The notes: generated from the letters alone by a model not told the origin. DNA of 64,000 nucleotides from an uncultured Verrucomicrobiae bacterium (GCA_963764175.1 CAVXRE010000013.1:193768-257767), one strand, 5' to 3'; numbered from the stretch's first letter, positions 41,026-52,778 are shown. Program-made: numbers and translations.

Positions 41026-42213
41026 TCAGGCCGCGGGCGGCCGGCGCGAGACGGTTTTCAGGCCGAGCACGCTCATGAAAAAGCTGGAAAAAATGGTTTG
41101 CACGCCGACAACCACCAGCGTTGCCGCCGGAATCAGGCGGCGCAGGTTTTCCTCCATGGACGGCAGCAGGCCGAAGTGGGCCTGTTTCCAAAGCCACAAC
41201 GCGCGCAGAAATAAAATTATTCCCGCAAGCAAAACGGCCAGGCCGGCAACAATCCCTTTTTCGAGCGTAAAAATTTTGAAGACGCGCGTGAGTCTCGGGT
41301 CCTCCGGCAGCAGCCCCTCGGCAACGGCAAAAACTCTGGTGAAAAACGCGAACGCAACGAGCTGGAAACCCACAACGACCGCCATGCACGCCATCATGAG
41401 CGTGCCCACGTTCAACTCGATGCCGCCGATCATGATGTCATTCACCGACAGCATGGCGGCAAAAAAGGCTCCCAGCGCCGAGAGCAAAAGTCCCGGCACG
41501 AGAAACAGCCACCGCGGCGAGTAGAGCAGCATGAACCGCAAATGCCGCCAGCCGTCGCGCCACGGCTTCAGATGCGGCGGACGCGAGCGCCCGTCCGGGT
41601 GCAGCGTGATGGGCACCTCGGTGATTTTGAACTTCCGGAGCGTGGCCTTGATGACCATTTCGGAGGCGAATTCCATGCCCGTCGTCTGCAATTCCATTTT
41701 TTCAAACGCCTCCCGGGTGAACCCGCGCATGCCGCAATGAAAATCGTGCGCCGGACACTTGAAAAAAAAACGGCCGATGAATGACAGCACCGGGTTGCCA
41801 AGCCAGCGGTTTTTCCACGGCATCGCACCGGGCAAAATGGCCCCACCGCCAACCGGCAAACGGCAGCCCATGACCAATTCAAACCCCTCCTGAAATTTTT
41901 TGACGAAGCCGGTGAGTTCGGAAAAATCGTAGCTGTCGTCCGCGTCGGCCATGATGATCCATTTGCCGAGGGCGGCGCGGATGCCGCCGCGCAGTGCGCT
42001 GCCGTAGCCCTTTTCCTTCACCGGCACGACACGGACACCCATGTTTTTGGCGATGGCCTGCGAACCGTCAGTGCTGCCGTTGTCGGCGATGATGATTTCA
42101 CCGGGCACGCCGGCGCGTTGAATTCCCAGCCTTGCCTTTTCGATGCAACGGGCGATGGTTTCCGCTTCATTCAGGCACGGCATCACGATGCTCAGTTCAA
42201 CGGCTCCGGTCAC
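41026..42213 (-). CDS. GT2 glycosyltransferase with C-terminal 4-TM domain (polyprenyl-phosphate glycosyltransferase-like, GtrB/ArnC/DPM1 type)
   Basis: LSIVMPCLNEAETI, ADNGSTDGS and ADADDSYD (DxD), followed by four hydrophobic helices. Confidence 0.8.
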   Translation of the reverse strand: MTGAVELSIVMPCLNEAETIARCIEKARLGIQRAGVPGEIIIADNGSTDGSQAIAKNMGVRVVPVKEKGYGSALRGGIRAALGKWIIMADADDSYDFSELTGFVKKFQEGFELVMGCRLPVGGGAILPGAMPWKNRWLGNPVLSFIGRFFFKCPAHDFHCGMRGFTREAFEKMELQTTGMEFASEMVIKATLRKFKITEVPITLHPDGRSRPPHLKPWRDGWRHLRFMLLYSPRWLFLVPGLLLSALGAFFAAMLSVNDIMIGGIELNVGTLMMACMAVVVGFQLVAFAFFTRVFAVAEGLLPEDPRLTRVFKIFTLEKGIVAGLAVLLAGIILFLRALWLWKQAHFGLLPSMEENLRRLIPAATLVVVGVQTIFSSFFMSVLGLKTVSRRPPAA

Positions 42214-42264
42214 GCGTCAAACTTACCCAAACGCCCGGTCATTTGGCGAGTGCGGGTTTTTGGC

Positions 42265-44166
42265 TCACGGCAATTTGACCAGGTACCAGCCGGTCCCGGG
42301 GCCCGTGGCATTCAAACGCAGCGGGATTTTTTGGATGACTTGCGCGTTCATTCGCCTGACCCAGTCGTCGGGTGAACACCCAAACCAAAATTCAAAGCTG
42401 TCCGTTTTAACCAGAACGTATTCGATGCCGCGCTGTTTCAAATCCGCCGGCTGGTCGCCGGGACGGACGTGCTCGATGCGGCGTGAACCGAACGGCCGCC
42501 ACAGCGAGGTTTCCGGCGTGTCAAATGCGATCAGCCCCAAAATTTTCAAGTCCGGCGGCAGCGCCGCGCGCGCCGGCGCAAATGCGTCGTTCCGCTCGTG
42601 ATAGACGGAATACACGGCCTCGACACGCGCCAGCGACGGATGTTGTTCCGCGGCCGCATGGATTTTTTCCAAAAATACGCCGACCGGAAACAGCGGACGC
42701 GCCGGCGAGACAACCAGCAATCCCGCCGCGATCAAAAACACTGGAAGCGCCATCGCACGCCACCAATTTTTTTTGACCAGTTGTTCATGCCCGGGAAAAG
42801 CCAAAAAAAACGGGGCCAGCAGCGCGTAATAGGGCGCAAGGATGCGATCGATGGGATAAACCTCCGACTGGCTCAACAGCACCAGCAGCGAAATCCACGG
42901 CGCCAGGCGCAAGCCGGCAAGCCAGAGGGCTTCGGTGAAACCGGACGGCCAATGGCAAGGCGGACCACTGCGCCGCGCGGCGGCAGCCACGACGCTGACC
43001 AGAAAAAAAATGGTGACGCCGAAACCCAAGCCGGCGGTTTCCTCGACCTGCATTTCTTCGATGTGAAATCCGGCGGCCTGCGGTTCCACGACCGCCTCAC
43101 GCATGCGCCGGCTCAAACCGGAGGGAACGATTTTTTGGACCAGGCGATCCCATGCATTGACCGGAGGAAAAACCGGCGGCGCAAGATTTTGGACCGTGAT
43201 CAGCGCGGCATTTGCCGGGACCCGCAAAAATGGCGCGTTTCTTTGCGGCGTCCCCTCGATTTTCCAGCCCGTCCAGTCGCCGCAGAAATGCGCATTGAGG
43301 ACGGCGTTGGGCAAAAACGACGCGAAGGCCGCGATGGCGCAAACCGCCGCCGTTTTCAATGGCCGCCGCAACATTAATCCCGGCGAAGGAAGGATGGCAA
43401 TGGCCCACGGCAGCAGCAACGGCAGGTTGCTGGTTTTGGCGCTGGTCATCATCGCCGCCGCCAGGATCGAAACAAAAATATTGCGCGCGGACCGGGATTT
43501 TTTTGCGCGCAGCGCAAAATCAATCGCCGCCAGCGCAAATGGCGCGCCGAACAAATCGCTGCCGATGCTCCCCGCCTGCAATAAAAAGCAATAGCCGGTC
43601 GGGACAATCCACATCCAATGCCAGGCTGTGCGCCGGCGCACGCCGAGCCGCGTGAACACGCTGAACACCAGGCCCGGCAGCAGCAGAAATGAAACAACAT
43701 TGATGAGAAACAGCTCCCGGTCGGTTCCCAGCAGCGCGACGAACGGCGCGGAAACCCATTCGATGCCGCAGGAACGGTCATTCAAGCGGTCGAAAATGGT
43801 GTGAATCCAGTGCCATTGTCCCGCCGCGAGCCAGTGCAGCACGCGTGGGATGCGATAAGCCAGCGCATCATAATTTGTCGGCGGATATAGCGCGCCGCCC
43901 AAAAATGCCAGAGCCGCCAGAATCAAAAACACCAGGGGGAAAGGCCGCCGGAAACGGCGGCGGAATTTTTTCAGGCGCGCCCGGGGCAACATTTGCGCGG
44001 ACGTTCTTTTCCTCCAAACGCAAAGGACGCTGAACCCAATCAGCAGCGCAACCACATAGCCGCCGGGGTTCAGCTCGTGAACCGCGGAGAGCGCCCAGCC
44101 CGCGCAATTGAGATACGCGCAAAACCAGACCCAGAGGAGCACGACAGTCGGCATTTTGCCGGCCAT
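42265..44166 (-). CDS. Large polytopic membrane protein, putative GT-C-fold glycosyltransferase (paralog 2)
   Basis: 633 aa. It is colinear with 20278..22182 over the full length (for example NYDALAYRIPRVLHWLAAGQWHWIHT against NGDSDAYRIPRVLHWLGQNQWHWIHT). Confidence 0.6.
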   Translation of the reverse strand: MAGKMPTVVLLWVWFCAYLNCAGWALSAVHELNPGGYVVALLIGFSVLCVWRKRTSAQMLPRARLKKFRRRFRRPFPLVFLILAALAFLGGALYPPTNYDALAYRIPRVLHWLAAGQWHWIHTIFDRLNDRSCGIEWVSAPFVALLGTDRELFLINVVSFLLLPGLVFSVFTRLGVRRRTAWHWMWIVPTGYCFLLQAGSIGSDLFGAPFALAAIDFALRAKKSRSARNIFVSILAAAMMTSAKTSNLPLLLPWAIAILPSPGLMLRRPLKTAAVCAIAAFASFLPNAVLNAHFCGDWTGWKIEGTPQRNAPFLRVPANAALITVQNLAPPVFPPVNAWDRLVQKIVPSGLSRRMREAVVEPQAAGFHIEEMQVEETAGLGFGVTIFFLVSVVAAAARRSGPPCHWPSGFTEALWLAGLRLAPWISLLVLLSQSEVYPIDRILAPYYALLAPFFLAFPGHEQLVKKNWWRAMALPVFLIAAGLLVVSPARPLFPVGVFLEKIHAAAEQHPSLARVEAVYSVYHERNDAFAPARAALPPDLKILGLIAFDTPETSLWRPFGSRRIEHVRPGDQPADLKQRGIEYVLVKTDSFEFWFGCSPDDWVRRMNAQVIQKIPLRLNATGPGTGWYLVKLP

Positions 44167-44297: not shown

Positions 44298-44783
44298 ATG
44301 CCTTCATTCGACATCGTTTCGCAGGTCAACTCGATGGAAATCGAGAACGCCGTCAACCAGGCCAAGAAGGAACTGGCCAACCGTTTCGATTTCAAGAACA
44401 GCAAATGGGAAATCGTGCTTGAAAAAAACGAAATCAAGCTCACCGCCGGGGACCAGTTCAAGGTCACCACGCTCAACGAAATCGTCATCGGCCGGCTCGC
44501 CAAGCGCGCCATCAGCTTAAAAAGCGTGGAGCAGTGCGAACCGGACATTTCGCCGCTCGGCCACGCTCGGCAGAGCATCAAAATCAAGCAGGGCATCGAA
44601 TCCACCATCGCCAAACAGATCACCGGCTTCATCCGCGACGGCAAGTTCAAGGTGACGACGCAGATCCAGGGCGATACCGTCCGCGTGACCGGCAAAAGCC
44701 GGGACGAACTGCAAACCGTCATCGGGGCCGTGCGCGCGAAGGAATTTCCCGTGCCCGTCCAGTTTGTGAATTTCAGGGATTAA
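44298..44783 (+). CDS. yajQ: YajQ-family (UPF0234) nucleotide/c-di-GMP-binding protein
   Basis: 161 aa. MPSFDIVSQVNSMEIENAVNQAKKELANRFDFK and the C-terminal VQFVNFRD match the YajQ family pattern and length. Confidence 0.9.
   Translation: MPSFDIVSQVNSMEIENAVNQAKKELANRFDFKNSKWEIVLEKNEIKLTAGDQFKVTTLNEIVIGRLAKRAISLKSVEQCEPDISPLGHARQSIKIKQGIESTIAKQITGFIRDGKFKVTTQIQGDTVRVTGKSRDELQTVIGAVRAKEFPVPVQFVNFRD
44743..44783 (+). repeat. Left copy of a 41-nt direct repeat (11 identical + 13 divergent + 17 identical nt) = 3' end of yajQ
   Basis: AATTTCCCGTG-cccgtccagtttg-TGAATTTCAGGGATTAA. Its partner is at 51219..51259. Confidence 0.8.
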
Positions 44784-44834
44784 CAAACCAGTTCGCGACG
44801 CCGGATTTTTTCATGGCGTCATCATGCCGCGCAA

Positions 44835-45764
44835 TCACGGTTTGCTGGTTTTTTCCAGCGAAGCTGCTACATTCCGTTCGCGTAGTATCTGACCGATTTT
44901 GTCCCTCAATTTTTTGGAAAAATCCTCAGCAGCGTCCCTCCGCAAATGCAGTGTGTCCACGAACGACGAATCCGGATAATACATCCGGCCCCAGTCGATC
45001 ACCACCACGTTGGGAAAGGCCGCCAGCCTGGCTTCAAATCCTTTCAGCTTCTCCTCATTCTGAAAATTCACATAGTACGAACGATGGTAGGGTGTAATGA
45101 CCAGAAAGAACAGGCGCTGTGGATGTTCGGTGATGTGCGCGATCAACCGGCGGTTCTTGTCCTCATCCGGGAAATAGCCGTTGGTCATTTGCAGCCGTGC
45201 GCGCACAATGTCATCAAACTTGGCTTGATCAAACGGGTGTGGGTGTAAAAATTCGACGAATCCCCGGGTCACTTTCGTCACGTGGAAGTGCTCGTTGATG
45301 TAATCCTTGAAGTACCAGTCATAATATCCAAAGTAACGGATACCGGGGATAAAATACCTCCATTCCAGCGCATGGAACCGTCTTAATAGTTGCCGAAATC
45401 TGGGGTCGGAAGCAAAAGGAATCAACTTGCCTTGATCGCCCAGGGTGCCGGCATCATGAAATTGCAGTTCAATGACAAGTGGTGTGGTTTTTGGCTTGGC
45501 AAGTTCGATCTGGAGAAGGACATCCGTCACTTCAAAAGAGGTGCCGTCCATGCCATAATTAAAGGTGTTTGAGCCCATGTCCATGTTGTGAATCTTCGAA
45601 GTGCCGAAAATGGGAATTTCATCACCACTCTCAAGGTAAAGATGCTGAATGCGCCCACAATCTGAGACCGGACGCAAGATGATGCGGTGCGTGAACCCCC
45701 AGTCCGCCAGCAGGCAACTGCCGGCGAACACCAGAAAGGCCATGATCCAAGCTTTCCATCTCAT
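44835..45764 (-). CDS. Membrane-anchored SGNH/DltD-like putative extracytoplasmic acyltransferase
   Basis: N-terminal TM (WKAWIMAFLVFAGSCLL), a candidate nucleophile block IFGTSKI and a C-terminal DxxH block (FVDTLHL). The start lies 4 nt after the MBOAT stop. The fold assignment is inferred. Confidence 0.55.
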   Translation of the reverse strand: MRWKAWIMAFLVFAGSCLLADWGFTHRIILRPVSDCGRIQHLYLESGDEIPIFGTSKIHNMDMGSNTFNYGMDGTSFEVTDVLLQIELAKPKTTPLVIELQFHDAGTLGDQGKLIPFASDPRFRQLLRRFHALEWRYFIPGIRYFGYYDWYFKDYINEHFHVTKVTRGFVEFLHPHPFDQAKFDDIVRARLQMTNGYFPDEDKNRRLIAHITEHPQRLFFLVITPYHRSYYVNFQNEEKLKGFEARLAAFPNVVVIDWGRMYYPDSSFVDTLHLRRDAAEDFSKKLRDKIGQILRERNVAASLEKTSKP

Positions 45765-45768
45765 AACA

Positions 45769-47178
45769 TCAGAACGCAGCGTAGATAAAATGTGCCGACC
45801 CCAGGTGCCCAAGGAAGAGAATCAACAACGCGCAGAGCAGTACAAACCATGGCGTTAAGCGGTCTGACGTCCGGTAGTAAAACCAAGCGACGCCAATCCA
45901 AGCCACGATGGCAGCGCAATCCAGCGCGAAGAAGTAAGGTTTGCTCTCGGGTAAATCACTGACAAACATTCCCGACATCCGCAGATGAAACAAGCGGCCG
46001 TAAATCCCCCGGGCTTGGGAAAGACTGGTTGACCGGAACAACACTTGGGTAAGGGCAAAGAAACCCAGCGTGTAAACGTTTCCCGCCCATGCCACCAGGC
46101 ACTGCGGCAGCCGTTTTAGTCGTTTGGCCCGCCACGATTTGGTGAGAAACTCGGCGGACATGGCCAGCCCCTGGCTGATTCCGAACAGCAAATAGGTCCA
46201 AGTTGCTGCGTGCCAAATGCCACAGATTGCAAAAGTGATGACCAACGCAAGAACGACTCCGAGTTTTCCCAACGTGCGTATCCGGATCAGCATCGGCAGG
46301 TAAAGATAGTCCCGCAGCCAAAATGAAAGAGTCATGTGCCAGCGCCGCCAGAGTTCGGTCACTGAAGTGCTGTTAAGCGGCCGGTCAAAATTGGGATCCA
46401 AGCGGATGCCCAAAAGCCGCGCGCTGCCGATGGCAATGTCCACGTAGCCTGAAAAATCGGCGTAGAGTTGCAGCGCATTGAAGCAGCAGGCCAGCAGGAC
46501 CGGCAGTGTGCCAAAGCCGGACGGGGATGCAAAAATGATGGAGACATATTCGTTCAGCCGGTTGGCCACCACGTATTTCTTGAAGAACCCGTATGCAATC
46601 ATTCGCAGACCTGCCAGACGGTCTTCTGCAGTGGGACAGCCCCCGGCTGTCAGTTGCGGCAACAGGCGTTCCGCCCGAGGGATGGGTCCTGATGATATCT
46701 GCGGGAAAAACAAGCCAAACAGGGCAAATTGCACAAAACCCTGGTCCAGTTTCCAAGTCCGCCGATAAGCATCGGTGACACAAGCCAGCATCTGGAAAGT
46801 GAAATAGGACAGGCCAAGGGGCGTGGCCAATCGTATCACCTCAGCGCCCGGTTCATGCCATCCGCACCGGACCAGGATTTCGCCGACAAAGCCCCCCGCA
46901 TATTTGAAGGCGATGAGGACAGCAAGGTTTATGGCTACTGTCCCGGTAAAAATCAAGGTACGATGCAACTGATCCGAAATCCGGCTTAAACTTGAAACCG
47001 CTACGTAATTGAGGCCGCACAGACCGAGCAGCAAGAACAGATAATTTACACTCGAAGCCGTGTAAAAAATCAGGCTCGCACAGAGCAAAACAACAACCCG
47101 CCAACGGCCAGGCAGCCAGGCGTGGACCACGACGATACATCCCAAGAACAGCAGGAAGATAGCGCTATCGAGGCCCAT
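45769..47178 (-). CDS. MBOAT-family membrane O-acyltransferase (AlgI/DltB-like)
   Basis: 469 aa, polytopic, with the signature LWRRWHMTLSFWLRDYLYLP including the conserved His. Confidence 0.9.
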   Translation of the reverse strand: MGLDSAIFLLFLGCIVVVHAWLPGRWRVVVLLCASLIFYTASSVNYLFLLLGLCGLNYVAVSSLSRISDQLHRTLIFTGTVAINLAVLIAFKYAGGFVGEILVRCGWHEPGAEVIRLATPLGLSYFTFQMLACVTDAYRRTWKLDQGFVQFALFGLFFPQISSGPIPRAERLLPQLTAGGCPTAEDRLAGLRMIAYGFFKKYVVANRLNEYVSIIFASPSGFGTLPVLLACCFNALQLYADFSGYVDIAIGSARLLGIRLDPNFDRPLNSTSVTELWRRWHMTLSFWLRDYLYLPMLIRIRTLGKLGVVLALVITFAICGIWHAATWTYLLFGISQGLAMSAEFLTKSWRAKRLKRLPQCLVAWAGNVYTLGFFALTQVLFRSTSLSQARGIYGRLFHLRMSGMFVSDLPESKPYFFALDCAAIVAWIGVAWFYYRTSDRLTPWFVLLCALLILFLGHLGSAHFIYAAF

Positions 47179-47197
47179 GATTCATGGTGCAGGCGGA

Positions 47198-47458
47198 TCA
47201 TCCGCCGCCGGACGGTGATGAAGCCTGTTTGCTGTGGATCAGTGCCGCCAATTCGCCCACATTCTGGAGTTGCTGAATTTCCCCGGCGGTGAATTTGACG
47301 CGGAATTTCTTCTCCACCGCCACCATAATCAATACATGGGTGATCGAATCCCAGCCATCGACGTCCTTGGCCGTAGTTGCTTCCGTGAGAGTGAGTGAAT
47401 CATTATCCAGTTGCTCCCTGAAAACTGCCGTCAGACCGTTCCACAAATTGTCATTCAT
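47198..47458 (-). CDS. Acyl/peptidyl carrier protein
   Basis: About 86 aa from the ATG at 47458. The phosphopantetheine-site context is DVDGWDSITHVLIMVAVE. Confidence 0.8.
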   Translation of the reverse strand: MNDNLWNGLTAVFREQLDNDSLTLTEATTAKDVDGWDSITHVLIMVAVEKKFRVKFTAGEIQQLQNVGELAALIHSKQASSPSGGG

Positions 47459-47564
47459 ATCGTTCCAGTTGGTTATAAGCCCGGCAATCTGGTTGGCTGC
47501 ACGGCGAACACATCGCACATCCTTAAATTAGTTACCGGGTTCTCATGGAGACTGCAATTAATCG

Positions 47565-49331
47565 TTAAGCATTGGTTGCCTCCCGGACTTCGTCCAGCGA
47601 AATATTTAGAGGACGGTCAAAATAACTGTCCACCTCCAGCTCCCACTGGTTGTCTTTTTTCTGCAAGAAACCCAGTTTAGCATAGTGGTCCTTGACCATT
47701 CCATTTTTCAGCGTGGGCACGTATTCGCCACGAACGCGTTTCAGCCCAAGTTCCCTGGCTTTTCCCACAATGGTATTCAAAACAAACTGTTCCATGCCCC
47801 GGCCCAAAACCCTGCAACTCATCAACCAAGTGTCCACAAAGAGCGCATCGCCTTGGATTTCCAATATGAGGACGGAGATCAGCCCGTTATCCCCAAACCG
47901 GTCCTTCAATTCAAAGGCGAGCGTGATATGCGCGGGGGAGCTGGCCAGTTCCGCAATCTGTTTTTCCGTGTAACGCACCGTGCGGAGGTTGAACTGGTTG
48001 GACCGCTGCGTGAGCTGGGCCACGCGGGGGATATTGAAAGGCAGAAATGATTGCACCACCGCCCTCATCTCAAGACTCTTCAGGAAGTCCGTCAGATCCA
48101 CGAACTTCTCACGCTCGGCGTGACGTTTTGCCTCCACTTGATACTCGCTGGTGCGTTGCGCATCCTGCGGCGTGTAGCTCGCAGTTTCGAAAGGATTCAA
48201 CCCGATCATGAATGTCACATATTCGGAGGGATCCGCCGGCAGATCGGGCACGCTCATGGTGGGAAAACTCTCCCGCACCAGTTGCCGCTCGGCCGGATTG
48301 TCATCGAGAAACATCATTGCTCCATAATCAATGTCAATGATGCTCTTGATGCGCCGGATGTTGGTCGCCTTGTCGTCCCAGTTCGCCATGAACACGGCAA
48401 TATCCTCCAGCCGCAGCACCATGTCCGGGTGCTTCAGGAATGGCTCACGGGCGTTGGCGTCGTCATTTTTGCTACACACGGCCAGCACGATGCCCCTGTC
48501 CCGTAATTGCTTGAGCCAGGACTGAAACGCCGTGAAGGCCGGCCCCAGCCCCAGATCGCCAATCTGTATCCGATCCAGCCCGTCGTCCCCAACCACGCCT
48601 CCCCACAAGGTGTTGTCGAGATCCAGGATGACGCATTTGAGAAAGACACCCTGGCGTGCCGCCAGCATCTTGACCACATCCCGCGCCACGAGCGGAAGAA
48701 TGCCCGGAGTCAGGGCGAACTTGGACGTGAAATAAAGTTTCGGGTCAAACAACGCCGTGCGGCCCATCTCCGCCTGCAACGCCGCCAGGTCATAGACGTG
48801 GAAATCAGCCGCCTCCCCCGCTAGCCGGGCCAGTTCCAAATTGCACCGCCGGATTTGGTTTTGGAGGGACCAGGCCACCTTGTTGGCATAGTTTCCGAAC
48901 ACTCCGTCGCCGGGATCTGCCAGATTAAAGAACAGCACCTGATATCCCCGGGCGGACAGGGTTTCGTGCAGGCTGCGCACCCGTTTTGAAAACCCGTCGG
49001 CGAGGGCACCCCGCTCGGCGACCGGGCGGGTCCCAAACTCCACCCCGATTTTCTCCCCTGCCAGATAAATGATGACCGTCCCGGGATGAAAGGCGTGCAA
49101 GGCTGAAGCAGGGTCAAAAACGGCCATCTCGATTTGATCAAATTCGCCCTCGAAAAGCTCCAGCGTAAATCCCAGGTGCCGCGCATAGCCCCGCAAAACA
49201 CCGGCCAGCAGTTGGGACGATGTATCTGCCAGCAAGGCCGCACGTATTTTCGGCAGCGCATCAATGCAAGGTTTTTTGGCGAGCTTCAATAAGGCGGCTA
49301 TATCCGGTAGGTTGTTCAGATTGTCAGACAT
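47565..49331 (-). CDS. FkbH-like HAD-IIIC phosphatase/acyl-loading enzyme with C-terminal GNAT-like domain
   Basis: HAD motif I VILDLDNTLWGGVVGDDG and a C-terminal LMSCRVLGRGMEQFVL...KNGMVKDHYAKLGF pattern typical of the FkbH family. Confidence 0.85.
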   Translation of the reverse strand: MSDNLNNLPDIAALLKLAKKPCIDALPKIRAALLADTSSQLLAGVLRGYARHLGFTLELFEGEFDQIEMAVFDPASALHAFHPGTVIIYLAGEKIGVEFGTRPVAERGALADGFSKRVRSLHETLSARGYQVLFFNLADPGDGVFGNYANKVAWSLQNQIRRCNLELARLAGEAADFHVYDLAALQAEMGRTALFDPKLYFTSKFALTPGILPLVARDVVKMLAARQGVFLKCVILDLDNTLWGGVVGDDGLDRIQIGDLGLGPAFTAFQSWLKQLRDRGIVLAVCSKNDDANAREPFLKHPDMVLRLEDIAVFMANWDDKATNIRRIKSIIDIDYGAMMFLDDNPAERQLVRESFPTMSVPDLPADPSEYVTFMIGLNPFETASYTPQDAQRTSEYQVEAKRHAEREKFVDLTDFLKSLEMRAVVQSFLPFNIPRVAQLTQRSNQFNLRTVRYTEKQIAELASSPAHITLAFELKDRFGDNGLISVLILEIQGDALFVDTWLMSCRVLGRGMEQFVLNTIVGKARELGLKRVRGEYVPTLKNGMVKDHYAKLGFLQKKDNQWELEVDSYFDRPLNISLDEVREATNA

Positions 49332-49501
49332 GAGCCATTTATAGTGTGGTCATTTAAGCGAAAACAGCGCAATTAGACAAATGCAAACTCCACCTTATAC
49401 CCAAGGAGTGTCCCATCGCACGCGTTGAATGGGGTCTTACAATTTGATTGCGAACTTCAACTTTCTTCATCCGCAGAAAGGAGTCCGCATCAAGCTGGTT
49501 A

Positions 49502-50584
49502 CTAGAGATTTACCTCAAAAAGGTTCCTGCCAGGCATGATCTCGCGCAACGCTTCCAGTAATTTCGCTGCGACATCCACTGCCGAAACCGGCTTGTTGAG
49601 GTCGTAAGTCAGGTTGGTGGAATCAGTCAGCATTCTTGGCGGGCGGACGATGACGAAGCGAATGGATTTGAACTCTAGTGCCAGCACTCGCAACAATCCT
49701 TCCACCGCCGATTTCGCCGCCACGTAGTGACTGAACTGCTCCGATGGTTTGACAGTGAAAATAGTTGAAATATGAATCACGATCGCACCCGGTTCCATCT
49801 GTGGGAGAAATGAATGTAAAAGCTTTGAACTTGCCGCCAGCGCGCGCTGAATGAAGTCGAGAAATTCCACCGGCGTCTGTGCCAGAAATTGCCGGGCCTC
49901 GATTTTAGGGAAAGCATTACATATCAAAAAATCCAGCCTGCCGAATTGTAAAAAAAAAGCGTCCTTCATGCGTTTGCAATCCTCTTCACTACTGACATCC
50001 CCCAGACATGGCAGGACTTTGACGGGGAGGAATCGGATCTCTTTTTCCAATTCATGGGCTTCCAACGAACTGGAGCGATAATTCAACGCCAGATTTGCAC
50101 CCTGTAGGGCAAAGGCCCTGGCCAGCACTCCGCCAAAACCACGGGAGGCGCCGGAAATGAAAACAGCCTTTCCCAGCATTTCAGAAGACTCTCCGACCCG
50201 GCTCCGGATATCCGCCAAGCTGTAATGCACCGGCTTGGGCCTGCGAAAGGCGCTGATCTGAAATGAATGGATTCCTGTTCCTGTGCCGGAAGCCGTCACC
50301 AGATTGAAACGGTCATCGTAAGCCATCTTCAAATTTCGCAATTCAAAATCTCTTTCCGACGATTTATTCGGTTCAAACGTGAAATTGAGTTCCGCGAATA
50401 ATGCTTGTTGACCTGGTATTTCCATTCCGACGAAATAGCTGCTCCACAGCAGCGCGCTTAATTGTCCGTACGGAAACTGGGAAGCCCCCCAGGCTGAAGT
50501 TTTTCTCGAAATCCGCCGCTGCATTCCAGTCCGGCTCATAGGGAAAAGGATCTTTAATCTTTCCCAGAACGTCCAGTTTGCCAT
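49502..50584 (-). CDS. Short-chain dehydrogenase/reductase. The N-terminal ~110 aa look like the second half of a double hotdog, so this is probably the 3' part of a frameshifted fusion gene
   Basis: ISGASRGFGG cofactor loop and YxxxK (YVAAKSA). Its 5' 212 nt overlap ORF 50373..51011 in another frame. Confidence 0.6.
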   Translation of the reverse strand: MANWTFWERLKILFPMSRTGMQRRISRKTSAWGASQFPYGQLSALLWSSYFVGMEIPGQQALFAELNFTFEPNKSSERDFELRNLKMAYDDRFNLVTASGTGTGIHSFQISAFRRPKPVHYSLADIRSRVGESSEMLGKAVFISGASRGFGGVLARAFALQGANLALNYRSSSLEAHELEKEIRFLPVKVLPCLGDVSSEEDCKRMKDAFFLQFGRLDFLICNAFPKIEARQFLAQTPVEFLDFIQRALAASSKLLHSFLPQMEPGAIVIHISTIFTVKPSEQFSHYVAAKSAVEGLLRVLALEFKSIRFVIVRPPRMLTDSTNLTYDLNKPVSAVDVAAKLLEALREIMPGRNLFEVNL

Positions 50585-51011
50585 CCCACTCTTTCGCCGC
50601 CGATAACGGCTGGAATATCCCCGGGGAATGGATTGGCGACGGCTGGTCAGAACTGCACTCCCGCCAAGTGAAGCGCATTCGTGTATGTATCTGATTGCCT
50701 TTCAGAATCTTGACCTCCACCTTCTCACCCGCCTCGGATATCTGAATCGTGTAAAGCTCCCCGACAAAAAGCGGCTTGTCAAATTTGGCCCGGACGGAAC
50801 CCAGTTCAAACCATCGGCCTCGGGCCCAAGCCCCTAAAACTGCCAAAACACCACTTACCCCGTAAACCACCGGCCGGCCAAATTGGGTCCGCCTTGAATA
50901 CTCCGGATCGACATGCAGCGGATTCCGGTCTCGGGAAATTTCCCGGAAGGCGGACATCTGGTTGGGCGTAAAGCACAAGTCCAAATTACAAACTGCAAGG
51001 CGACTGTTCAT
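50373..51011 (-). CDS. MaoC-like (R)-hydratase/dehydratase hotdog domain; probably the 5' part of a frameshifted hotdog-SDR gene
   Basis: NPLHVDPEYSRRTQFGRPVVYG is the MaoC signature. The last ~35 aa after the G-run look like out-of-frame read-through. Confidence 0.65.
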   Translation of the reverse strand: MNSRLAVCNLDLCFTPNQMSAFREISRDRNPLHVDPEYSRRTQFGRPVVYGVSGVLAVLGAWARGRWFELGSVRAKFDKPLFVGELYTIQISEAGEKVEVKILKGNQIHTRMRFTWRECSSDQPSPIHSPGIFQPLSAAKEWDGKLDVLGKIKDPFPYEPDWNAAADFEKNFSLGGFPVSVRTIKRAAVEQLFRRNGNTRSTSIIRGTQFHV

Positions 51012-51218
51012 TTCGAATCTTGAACGGTCTTTCGATTAAACACACGAGATCCACCGCTGGATGGCATTCAGTAATAGTTCCCGGTTTATTGCAATTTGAC
51101 AAGCCGCCAGTCAGTTGCAGTAAAATCCACAGGTGCGCTTGTGCGGCTGGTGGAAAGACCTTTCGACAATATTCGTTACAAGGTGCGCAAACGCCTGACT
51201 ATGCGCGCAACCCTGTGA

Positions 51219-51259
51219 AATTTCCCGTGTTGTTGCCGCTGATGAATTTCAGGGATTAA
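51219..51259 (+). repeat. Right copy of the 41-nt direct repeat (degenerate yajQ 3' end remnant)
   Basis: AATTTCCCGTG-ttgttgccgctga-TGAATTTCAGGGATTAA. It translates as KFPVLLPLMNFRD*, against EFPVPVQFVNFRD* in yajQ. Its stop overlaps the convergent RNase gene stop. Confidence 0.8.
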
Positions 51260-52650
51260 ATCTCCGCCACCTGCTTGTATTCCGGCACGATGACGTCGGC
51301 CTTTGGTTTCATTTGACGCAATGTTTCCGCATGGGCGAGGCATTGGGATTCTTCGCCGTGGATGCAGATGATTTTTTTGAGGTCGCCGGAAATTCTTTCC
51401 ACATATTGCTTCAATTCATTCCTGTCCGCGTGGCCGGAGTAGGTGTCCAGCGAAACAATTTTCGCGCGCACCGGCTGCGGTTCGCCGAAAATGTTGACGG
51501 GATTCTGCCCGGCCACAATCTGGGCGCCCAGCGTATTTTCCGCGCAGTAGCCGATGAACAGAACCAGGTTCTTCGGATCGCCGATGTGGTTTTGGAGATG
51601 ATGCCGGATGCGCCCGGCTTCGCACATGCCCGACGCGCTGATGATGATGGCGGGTTCCTTCAAATCGTTGAGTTTCTTTGACTGGTCGGCTTCGCGGATG
51701 TAGGTCAGGTTTGACATGCCAAAGGGATTCGCCTTTTCGTGCAGGAATTTATTGATCGTGTCGTTGAAACATTCCGGGTGCAGGCGGTAAATCTCCGTGG
51801 CATTCACGCTCAACGGGCTGTCCACAAAAATCGGCGCGCGCGGCAGTTTGCCCGCGAGCGTCAGCTGGTTCAGCACATAGACAATCTGCTGCGTGCGCCC
51901 CACCGAAAACGCCGGGATGATGACCTTGCCGTTTTGTTTCAAGGTTTCCAGCACCAGCCGGCCGACGGTTTCGTCGGCGTCGGCGCGCACTTCGTGTTCG
52001 CGTCCGCCGTAGGTGGATTCGATTTGCAGATAATCCACGTTTTCGCTCGCCACCGGGTCGCGGAGAATTTCGTCGTTGCCACGGCCCACGTCGCCGCTGA
52101 ACAGGTATCGGAATTTTCGGCCGCCTTCGCGCACGTCCAAAATGACCTGCGCCGAGCCGAGAATGTGCCCGGCGTCGCGGAACGTGACGGTGACGCCGTC
52201 CACGACCGGAAACGGGCGTTCGTAGCTGAAGCCGACGAATTGATGCAGCGTTTTCTCCGCGTCCGCGATGGAGTAAAGCGGTTCGACCGGCGGCAGATGT
52301 TTTTTCGCGCGCTGTTTGGAGACGAACGCGGCGTCGTCCATCTGGATGTGCGCGGAATCCACGAGCATGATGCTGCACAGGTCGCGCGTGGCGAAGGTGC
52401 AATGGATGTTGCCGGTGTAACCCTGCTTGACGAGGTTCGGCAGGTTGCCCGCATGGTCCATGTGCGCGTGGCTCAGGACGACGGCGTCAATCTGCTTCGG
52501 GTCAAACGGGAAGCAGCAGTTGCGCTGTATGGACTCCTCGCGGTGGCCCTGGAAGAGGCCGCACTCGAGCAACAGCCGCTTGCCGTTGACCTCGATCAGA
52601 TACATCGAACCGGTGGTGGTGCGCGCCGCGCCAAGGAAATGGATTTTCAT
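51256..52650 (-). CDS. MBL-fold beta-CASP family RNA-metabolising hydrolase (RNase J/CPSF-like)
   Basis: HxHxDH (SHAHMDHAG) and a C-terminal beta-CASP His motif (YSGHAD). Preferred ATG at 52650 (MKIHFLGAARTTTGS). Confidence 0.85.
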   Translation of the reverse strand: MKIHFLGAARTTTGSMYLIEVNGKRLLLECGLFQGHREESIQRNCCFPFDPKQIDAVVLSHAHMDHAGNLPNLVKQGYTGNIHCTFATRDLCSIMLVDSAHIQMDDAAFVSKQRAKKHLPPVEPLYSIADAEKTLHQFVGFSYERPFPVVDGVTVTFRDAGHILGSAQVILDVREGGRKFRYLFSGDVGRGNDEILRDPVASENVDYLQIESTYGGREHEVRADADETVGRLVLETLKQNGKVIIPAFSVGRTQQIVYVLNQLTLAGKLPRAPIFVDSPLSVNATEIYRLHPECFNDTINKFLHEKANPFGMSNLTYIREADQSKKLNDLKEPAIIISASGMCEAGRIRHHLQNHIGDPKNLVLFIGYCAENTLGAQIVAGQNPVNIFGEPQPVRAKIVSLDTYSGHADRNELKQYVERISGDLKKIICIHGEESQCLAHAETLRQMKPKADVIVPEYKQVAEI

Positions 52651-52658
52651 GCGGGGAA

Positions 52659-52697
52659 ATTTAACCACGGATGAACACGGATGGACACGGATTTTTT
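52659..52697. repeat. REP-like element / 10-nt tandem (CACGGATGRA x ~2.7) immediately upstream of the RNase start
   Basis: atttaaccacggatgaacacggatggacacggattttt, confirmed by the spurious ORF translation TTDEHGWTRIF. Confidence 0.6.
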
Positions 52698-52700
52698 TCA

Positions 52701-52778
52701 TCGTCGTCGTCCTCGTCCTCGCAATAGAAAAATTCGAGGACGAAGGCGAGAACGAAGAACGAGGAACGAGGAACGAGG
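52701..52778 (-). other. infA-RNase intergenic structure: 21-nt-arm hairpin plus four AACGAGG heptamers (CCTCGTT on the transcribed strand)
   Basis: Arms tcgtcgtcgtcctcgtcctcg / cgaggacgaaggcgagaacga (17 of 21 complementary, 9 contiguous bp at the loop). The heptamers aacgaag aacgagg aacgagg aacgagg lie at 52751-52778. Confidence 0.6.

Follow-up and report, generated by a model that had tools for sequence, protein, structure and literature searches.

A duplicated yajQ 3' end flanks a putative acylation cassette at a hotspot between two convergent core genes of Limisphaerales

Analysis of a 64,000-nt stretch of DNA (hereafter the window) from a metagenome-assembled genome (MAG) of the Limisphaerales (Verrucomicrobiota; GCA_963764175.1, CAVXRE010000013.1:193768-257767) revealed an intact yajQ gene and a convergently oriented ribonuclease (RNase) gene that are separated by a cassette of genes for a putative acylation pathway, and the last 41 nt of yajQ recur at the far end of this cassette, where they abut the RNase stop codon. 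The yajQ gene (44298-44783, plus strand) encodes a protein of 161 amino acids that matches DUF520 over its full length (Pfam PF04461, E = 1.4e-55), and the RNase gene (51256-52701, minus strand) encodes a beta-CASP/RMMBL protein of the metallo-beta-lactamase fold (Pfam Beta-Casp, E = 2e-40; RMMBL, E = 1.5e-15). Starting from yajQ, the segment between them begins with a spacer of 51 nt between the convergent stops of yajQ and of the first cassette gene (44784-44834), which forms the left cassette junction. It is followed by genes for a DltD-like protein (44835-45743), a DltB-like MBOAT (45769-47178), an acyl carrier protein (ACP; 47198-47458), an FkbH-type loader (47565-49331) and a MaoC-dehydratase/SDR fusion (49502-51011), all on the minus strand and thus co-directional with the RNase gene and with infA upstream of it. 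A leader or promoter region of the cassette (51012-51125), conserved in alignment with the related locus L084, leads to a plus-strand remnant of an open reading frame (ORF; last 29 codons and stop, 51126-51218) that is fused to the second copy of the yajQ end. The same arrangement is found in a second assembly (GCA_049279155.1, a Verrucomicrobiia MAG) and on a Joint Genome Institute contig (L083; related loci are designated here by L numbers), and an assembly artefact is therefore ruled out. Also, the cassette is present on every contig with an identical YajQ or RNase protein.

Both copies of the repeat read AATTTCCCGTG-(13)-TGAATTTCAGGGATTAA on the plus strand, with identical blocks of 11 and 17 nt at equal spacing around a central 13-mer, exactly as stated in a preliminary description of this DNA. 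Between the two central 13-mers only 4 of 13 positions agree, as many as would be expected by chance. The left copy (44743-44783) is the functional last 41 nt of yajQ, ends in …EFPVPVQFVNFRD-stop and is typical of the yajQ 3' ends of the clade. The right copy (51219-51259) terminates a 79-codon ORF, likewise in frame, with …FPVLLPLMNFRD-stop, and its TAA (51257-51259) overlaps by two bases the TTA at 51256-51258, the reverse complement of the RNase stop codon. These in-frame ends, the identity of the left copy with the end of an intact DUF520 gene and the overlap of the two stops had all been described correctly. A search of the window that tolerated three mismatches returned only the two copies and no match in 100 dinucleotide-preserving shuffles, which excludes chance, as had been argued before. 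When a profile of yajQ 3' ends was used with nhmmer, the right copy was recovered with an E value of 0.001 over profile positions 47-89. In a survey of 134 related loci, the motif was confined to yajQ 3' ends, the right copy of the window and one other displaced gene end. No further displaced gene end (scar) was detected elsewhere in the window.

The RNase protein was scanned against one genome per GTDB species, which yielded 80 loci, nearly all from Limisphaerales or Verrucomicrobia subdivision 3, with orthologues that are 72-99% identical, and the FkbH protein was scanned against metagenomes, which yielded further cassette-bearing lineages. For each relative the scope was the roughly 20 kb around the locus. 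In about 25 related species yajQ (74-93% identical) lies downstream of the RNase gene and is convergent on it, and in L012 the site is empty, the two stops being only 2 nt apart (…AGGGATTAG-CT-TTAAATCTCC…, that is, yajQ TAG-CT-TTA RNase). The ancestral tail-to-tail arrangement that had been postulated, together with an empty site in a related genome, was thus found, and the right copy of the window lies exactly where the old yajQ end would have met the RNase stop, in agreement with the earlier proposal that an insertion split the two genes and regenerated the yajQ frame. In the other species the gap between yajQ and the RNase gene measures 0.5-3.1 kb, or 9.7 kb in L024, and its content differs nearly everywhere, 79 ORFs falling into 63 clusters. 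Among this cargo Pfam recognizes ParD/ParE, a DUF6883 and DUF4926 pair, IS200-like Y1 transposases (Y1_Tnp), an Acyl_transf_3 protein, a nucleoside-deoxyribosyltransferase-like protein and a nucleotidyltransferase; the acylation cassette was found in none of the 80 species representatives. These comparisons show that the junction is a long-lived recombination hotspot of the Limisphaerales at which cargo has been added, swapped and lost. A literature search for yajQ as an integration site returned nothing relevant.

Displaced gene ends have also arisen independently in relatives. In L023 a 78-nt duplicate of the yajQ 3' end lies 650 nt downstream of the intact end, and the DUF6883/DUF4926 pair is located between the two. 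In their near-identical final 62 nt or so the two copies differ at 3 positions, all synonymous; at each of them the displaced copy agrees with the nearest relative, L022, as would be expected if the incoming DNA had brought its own yajQ end. At the other side of the junction, remnants of the RNase 3' end occur in at least 11 species (L004, L005, L008, L010, L011 with three, L013 with two, L017, L019, L020, L030, L050 and L054). They start 33-341 nt upstream of the stop, with 85-100% identity, and those mapped on their own gene (L004, L010, L011, L013, L017, L019, L020 and L050) end no more than 2 nt from the stop codon; the remnant of L054 stops 15 nt short of it. In the series of L011 the RNase gene is followed by ParD-ParE, a perfect remnant of 70-82 nt with hairpins that resemble repetitive extragenic palindromes (REP), a 34-nt remnant, other ORFs and a 39-nt remnant with the same hairpins. 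An untargeted search of 1.66 Mb of related sequence, in which direct repeats had to be anchored at the end of a long ORF, again detected the known scars. It also detected displaced copies of the purD (GARS) 3' end, downstream of the gene and with 83-84% identity, in L023 (1137-1245 and 1953-2061) and in L030 (3296-3353 and 3577-3634), a few kb from the RNase gene. Scars of gene ends thus extend beyond yajQ and the RNase gene. These data show that insertions at both convergent genes have repeatedly regenerated the gene and displaced its old end, and that the length of the displaced piece is not fixed. In two more distant species larger RNase fragments were observed downstream of the intact gene, which consist of about 340 nt of the 3' end and an internal piece of 142 nt (L050, 14369-14710 and 16317-16458; L054, 7274-7597 and 9219-9360).

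A ParD/ParE module with a palindromic operator (GATAAC…GTTATC) follows straight after the RNase stop in nine species (L004, L005, L008, L011, L013, L017, L020, L030 and L075; at about 11.4-12.1 kb of the loci), and an RNase remnant lies behind it in all but L075. A recent spread of ParDE was considered but found no support: the pairwise ParDE identities track those of the RNase, as is expected for an old, vertically inherited module. The five remnants behind it that were compared (L004, L011, L013, L017 and L030) are at least as close to the gene end of their own genome as to those of others, with L013 as a tie; the counts are small, L011 matching its own end at 69 of 69 positions (at most 67 for other genomes), L017 at 64 (at most 61) and L004 at 39 of 39 (at most 38). 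Also, these remnants decay only from their upstream side. Gene conversion between a gene end and its displaced copy would explain both the closeness and the one-sided decay, although with such small numbers this amounts to a hint.

The cassette occurs between the same two genes in two other, diverged lineages, L084 and L127/L128. L084 carries all cassette genes, with an FkbH protein 83% and a YajQ protein 87% identical to those of the window, and over all cassette proteins the identity between window and L084 is 69-88%; the FkbH proteins of window and L127 are 82% identical. In L127/L128 (complete in L128, on a contig of 221 kb) the MaoC-SDR gene is missing and the order is RNase, AAATTTCCCGcccgcca[c/t]agtgtgtgtattcgggacTTAA, an ORF of 107-114 codons, FkbH-ACP-MBOAT-DltD-like, yajQ. 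The short stretch next to the RNase gene aligns with the yajQ 3' end, has a normal centre (CCCG..CAGT.TG) and shows about nine scattered changes or indels. The ORF beside it (L127 573-917 and L128 6095-6418, both on the minus strand) is the same as the remnant at 51126-51218 of the window, with 72% identity over 29 amino acids in a tblastn comparison with the 114-aa ORF of L127, and the junction …GTGAAATTTCCCG is common to the window and L127/L128. Over 51126-51259, 102 of 130 aligned nt are identical between window and L127. The left junction of the window, whose spacer contains a hairpin GACGCC(12 nt)GGCGTC at 44797-44820, is homologous to that of L128 and of L084. The remnant itself has no match among Pfam and NCBIfam families; that it might be the C-terminus of an acyltransferase-3 protein was considered and dropped, as neither collection supported it and a BLASTP comparison with the Acyl_transf_3 protein of L007 gave an E value of 2.2. 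From the common scar, ORF fragment and left junction it follows that a single insertion, which left a single scar, took place before these lineages split; at third codon positions their RNase and FkbH genes are now only 69-75% identical. The cassette is therefore an old resident. The idea of a recent integration is not upheld in view of the cassette at the same site in L084 and L127/L128 and of the decayed orthologous scar in the latter. In L084 the region by the RNase stop contains no yajQ remnant; a REP-like hairpin and a truncated IS200-like gene are found there. In minus-strand reading, a GTCCCTGCGGGAC hairpin and a frameshifted fragment of the IS200-like type (REP-associated tyrosine transposase, RAYT) take the place of the scar at 95-420.

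Composition sets the cassette apart only mildly. A GC content of 38-43% had been reported for it, in comparison to more than 60% for the flanks, but the segment of 6,435 nt has 53.0% and the remainder of the window 57.1%, only 5 of the 107 lines of 60 nt in the segment lie below 43%, and the flanks range from 55 to 62% and are not uniformly above 60%. The segment is the lowest 6.4-kb stretch of the window, nearly tied with one at about 31.1 kb (53.1%). At third codon positions the GC content of the cassette genes is moderately lower (0.60-0.69) than that of yajQ (0.80) or of the RNase gene (0.77).

We consider it probable that the right copy is a yajQ scar that was left by homology-dependent displacement of a gene 3' end at this hotspot. 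Comparison with the relatives shows that the right copy is the original last 41 nt or so of yajQ, which stayed beside the RNase stop when DNA entered the tail-to-tail junction of yajQ and the RNase gene, and that this DNA brought a new yajQ 3' end with which the gene remained intact. Such a process most likely uses general homology and not a dedicated integrase. Two routes might lead there. One is homology-facilitated illegitimate recombination (HFIR), for which the flanking gene would serve as anchor; the other is the insertion, by a single crossover, of a circle that bears a stretch of the gene's 3' end, as in the Rhs model. By either route one would expect remnants of variable length that reach to the stop codon, serial arrays and no integrase. 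Series and variable lengths are indeed seen in relatives, with three remnants in L011 and two in L013, and the window has one scar.

Precedents for displaced 3' fragments of variable length behind an intact gene, without an integrase, are the rhs loci (PMC2935791) and the effector modules of type VI secretion systems (T6SS; PMC5361080). For rhs loci it has been proposed that a circle with a piece of the conserved gene and a new tip inserts by a single homologous crossover, that the old tip is shunted downstream and that the length of the fragment depends on the site of recombination (Jackson et al., 2009; PMC2935791). For T6SS effector-immunity arrays, HFIR anchored in the conserved upstream part of the gene has been proposed (Kirchberger et al., 2017; PMC5361080). 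As in rhs and in arrays of contact-dependent inhibition (CDI) or T6SS genes, an intact gene is followed here by fragments of its own 3' end in the same orientation, with new DNA between them and no integrase. However, in those systems the incoming tip is a different toxin domain, whereas here the same housekeeping C-terminus (…PVQFVNFRD) was restored and only the cargo downstream is new; the genes affected (yajQ, beta-CASP RNase and purD) are not polymorphic toxins, and the window has a single scar and not an array. A second likeness is to flexible islands of the replacement type, which lie between core genes and change their content through homologous recombination, and to integration hotspots, which reportedly were treated by Oliveira, Touchon and Rocha in 2017. 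Similarly, two core genes bracket here a content that varies between species, often toxin-antitoxin or surface-glycan genes without mobility genes, and the presence of an allele does not follow the phylogeny of the flanks. Pure replacement by double crossover leaves no scars, whereas many events at this locus left duplicated gene ends, and an illegitimate or single-crossover step must therefore have taken place.

Several observations weigh against displacement by general homology. Neither an intermediate nor a donor or a breakpoint was observed, and yajQ is without clear mosaic structure; when it was tested for a donor-type 3' part, nearest neighbours shifted from segment to segment without a clear breakpoint. 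A length of 41 nt is short for a RecA-dependent crossover, and an integrase may act in trans from elsewhere in these genomes, given that about 20 kb per locus was examined with limited probes. By RNase sequence the cassette-bearing lineages are not nearest neighbours (DNA identity 0.907 for window and L004, 0.915 for L128 and L020, and 0.887 for window and L128), and several losses or an exchange of flank alleles must therefore be assumed. Furthermore, the right copy keeps 28 of 28 flanking positions around a scrambled 13-mer, whereas its orthologue in L127/L128 decayed diffusely. Neutral decay of a scar does not account for 28 intact nt and a scrambled centre. Nine independent substitutions confined to one block of 13 nt are very unlikely, and the pattern needs a single multi-base event together with something that keeps the remainder unchanged. 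A template for the central 13-mer was sought on both strands of the window and of the 134 loci, and no second copy was found. As the uninterrupted identity between the copies is only 11 and 17 nt, excision of the cassette between them by a RecA-type process would now be rare and is unlikely.

The two copies had been described as att-like marks of site-specific integration, and a version of this idea in which they are attL and attR of an integrase-less or trans-mobilized element, similar to a cis-mobilizable element (CIME), that carried a mimic of the yajQ 3' end in its attP seems unlikely to us. Islands and CIMEs of tyrosine recombinases insert at the 3' ends of tRNA or protein genes, where they leave a direct repeat, a reconstituted gene and a displaced old end and may accumulate by accretion. 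In accordance with such islands, direct repeats from a gene 3' end lie exactly at the boundaries of the cassette and the frame is reconstituted, the identical 11- and 17-nt blocks could hold a crossover core, the serial RNase remnants of relatives resemble tandem accretion at tRNA genes, and the third-position GC content of the cassette genes is lowered. However, the central 13 nt, in which the overlap region of a tyrosine recombinase would normally be expected to match, are the only part of the repeat that differs, although a crossover may have lain within one of the identical blocks. Remnant lengths vary from event to event (41 nt, or 41-43, and 78 nt for yajQ, 33-341 nt for the RNase gene), so that no single att core or common length emerges. 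Three target genes are affected, which would need several recombinases with different cores, none of which was seen. In addition, L084 has the cassette without the repeat, and the insertion is older than the species splits, an old cassette without mobility genes being unlike such islands. The search for a recombinase was negative, as the preliminary description had stated for the window. In the window organism and in L128, the Pfam-annotated genes up to 8-10 kb from yajQ, the RNase gene or the DltD-like gene include no integrase, resolvase or transposase. XerD and Hin were used as phmmer probes on 6,905 ORFs (100 amino acids or longer) from the window and 127 loci and gave no match with E < 1, but the sensitivity of these probes is limited. 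In all, no recombinase was met in the window or in about 130 related loci, and the window contains no tRNA gene. Outside the locus, the 41-mer pattern was absent from IMG/VR viral contigs, and the cassette gave only short matches on PLSDB plasmids and GenBank phages (3-4% of the query, mostly the HAD domain of FkbH); a counterpart in these phage, plasmid and viral collections was thus lacking.

A more far-reaching version of displacement by homology, doubtful at present, is that gene-end stretches of yajQ, the RNase gene and purD are portable homology handles of an integrase-free cassette system and are kept matched by gene conversion. General recombination between a gene end and its displaced copy would loop out the cassette that they flank, and the cassette might then enter a different genome through one crossover at the corresponding gene, which would thereby be regenerated. 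Cargo would then pile up between the convergent genes, and through gene conversion the handles would continue to match the resident gene. The repeat of the window, broken at its centre, would be a disabled handle that locks in a useful glycan-acylation cassette.

It is quite improbable that the right copy has been kept for a function of its own, as a 3' signal of the RNase mRNA or as a regulatory site of the cassette, by selection or gene conversion. Such a role would fit the 28 intact flanking positions in view of the decayed L127/L128 scar, and also the adjoining non-coding stretch, which is nearer to L127 (about 87% by eye over some 96 nt) than are the third codon positions of the RNase and FkbH genes (identity 0.69-0.75), as well as the RNase remnants behind ParDE that are closest to the gene end of their own genome. 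However, the RNA fold of the right copy is no better than that of shuffles (z = -0.19), promoter and terminator scans found nothing above chance, and Rfam gave no match in 43.5-53.5 kb. The element is carried by one lineage only; of the relatives with the same RNase and cassette, L127/L128 do not conserve it and L084 lacks it. A transposon target-site duplication or a dispersed copy of a REP or of a miniature inverted-repeat transposable element (MITE) is hardly credible, even if IS200-like (RAYT) genes and REP-like hairpins occur in the hotspot of L011, L020, L046 and L084, since 41 nt is far above known target-site duplications, no terminal inverted repeats were found at the segment boundaries and no transposase in the segment, and the element, for which a REP-type nature had been named earlier as a refuting outcome, is not REP-like and has two copies in 64 kb and elsewhere only those at yajQ 3' ends and scars.

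As for the cargo, a carrier protein, a DltB-type MBOAT and a DltD-type SGNH protein are encoded together. The DltD-like protein is a membrane-anchored protein of 302 amino acids with an SGNH fold (the mechanically called ORF reaches 45812) that has no Pfam or NCBIfam match and no match to PDB sequences with phmmer, so that only fold comparison found relatives. Its AlphaFold model (predicted local distance difference test 92, built with 40 homologues) retrieved DltD structures or SGNH hydrolases as the top 12 Foldseek hits with E values of 3e-5 to 4e-4, DltD structures 3bma, 6o93, 6pfx and 7dxm being the best, although the template-modelling scores were only 0.35-0.43. Residues S49, D263 and H266 are invariant among the 40 homologues. 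The MBOAT (Pfam MBOAT, E = 1e-21) matches the NCBIfam model LTA_dltB with E = 1.5e-47 and 163 bits, which is under the equivalog cut-off of 375 bits. The ACP comprises 86 amino acids (Pfam PP-binding, E = 5e-5; the mechanically called ORF reaches 47518), is also called with 86 amino acids in L001, and matches NCBIfam ACP models with E values down to 1e-7, all under their cut-offs. The loader consists of FkbH_N (Pfam, E = 2e-46) and an HAD-IIIC phosphatase/acyltransferase domain, and its NCBIfam FkbH domain (TIGR01686) scores 289 bits at a cut-off of 147 bits. The MaoC-SDR gene (Pfam MaoC_dehydratas and adh_short, on two overlapping ORFs) is split by one extra G in the run at 50485-50490 on the gene strand. 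This run is G6 in the window and in L002 and G5 in L083, which is 99-100% identical to the window, and in L084, both of which have an intact ORF of 502 amino acids; the split could stem from an error in the homopolymer, or it could be genuine on/off variation. The leader (51093-51107) and codons K-F-D-K-P-L of the MaoC part (50771-50785), 307 nt apart, also form a perfect inverted repeat of 15 nt; in L084 the coding arm is the same, and two changed positions in the leader arm give one G-U pair and one mismatch. It could be long-range pairing of leader and coding sequence, or chance.

From family membership and fold we infer that the cargo encodes an extracytoplasmic acylation pathway of the Dlt kind, with a loader of the FkbH type in the place of DltA; no DltA-type adenylating enzyme is encoded in the cassette. 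The FkbH-type enzyme would load a small hydroxy-acyl unit onto the dedicated ACP, the MaoC-SDR fusion may alter the acyl group, and the DltB-like MBOAT and the DltD-like protein would hand it to an acceptor outside the membrane. Since the loader is an FkbH-type HAD protein and not an adenylating DltA, and since FkbH enzymes point to a likely glyceryl-type, glycolysis-derived hydroxy-acyl group, the unit transferred is probably of this kind and not D-alanine. The pathway resembles D-alanylation by DltA-D in that a carrier protein, a DltB-like MBOAT and a DltD-like SGNH protein with conserved Ser, Asp and His are encoded side by side. It differs in the loader, in the host, a Gram-negative verrucomicrobium, and in the presence of a MaoC-SDR fusion, which two of the three lineages with the cassette at this site possess. 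The core of four genes (FkbH, ACP, MBOAT and DltD-like) is also found in the unrelated contexts of L085, L089, L131 and L132 and is thus a functional module independent of yajQ. A literature search that combined FkbH, MBOAT, ACP and polysaccharide returned nothing relevant.

The region on the other side of yajQ (41026-44166 of the window and its equivalents in L004-L073) is variable too. It contains a family 2 (GT2) glycosyltransferase that is 24-90% identical to those of relatives and a membrane protein of 633 amino acids without a family match (34-69%), and the arrangement differs between relatives; given variable glycan-related regions on both sides, yajQ therefore sits between two of them. 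Elsewhere in the window, tandem GCC/ACC-rich repeats of 9 and 12 nt at 1535-1710 are probably a low-complexity coding stretch. The RNase also scored 415 bits with the NCBIfam model for the type VII CRISPR protein Cas14, far under the cut-off of 800 bits, which is generic beta-CASP similarity; no CRISPR context was seen.

In summary, the site between the two core genes is hypervariable, and the cassette of the window is one of its old alleles and not a recent mobile element of low GC content. The locus provides a record across many species, from the empty site to single and serial scars and to scars of both genes, of how cargo may be added beside housekeeping genes without an integrase, and this record is relevant to the question of how integration hotspots operate when no integrase is present. 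The cassette itself would be an unstudied variant of Dlt logic in a Gram-negative phylum, and it predicts a new extracytoplasmic O-acylation of a surface polymer in these bacteria.

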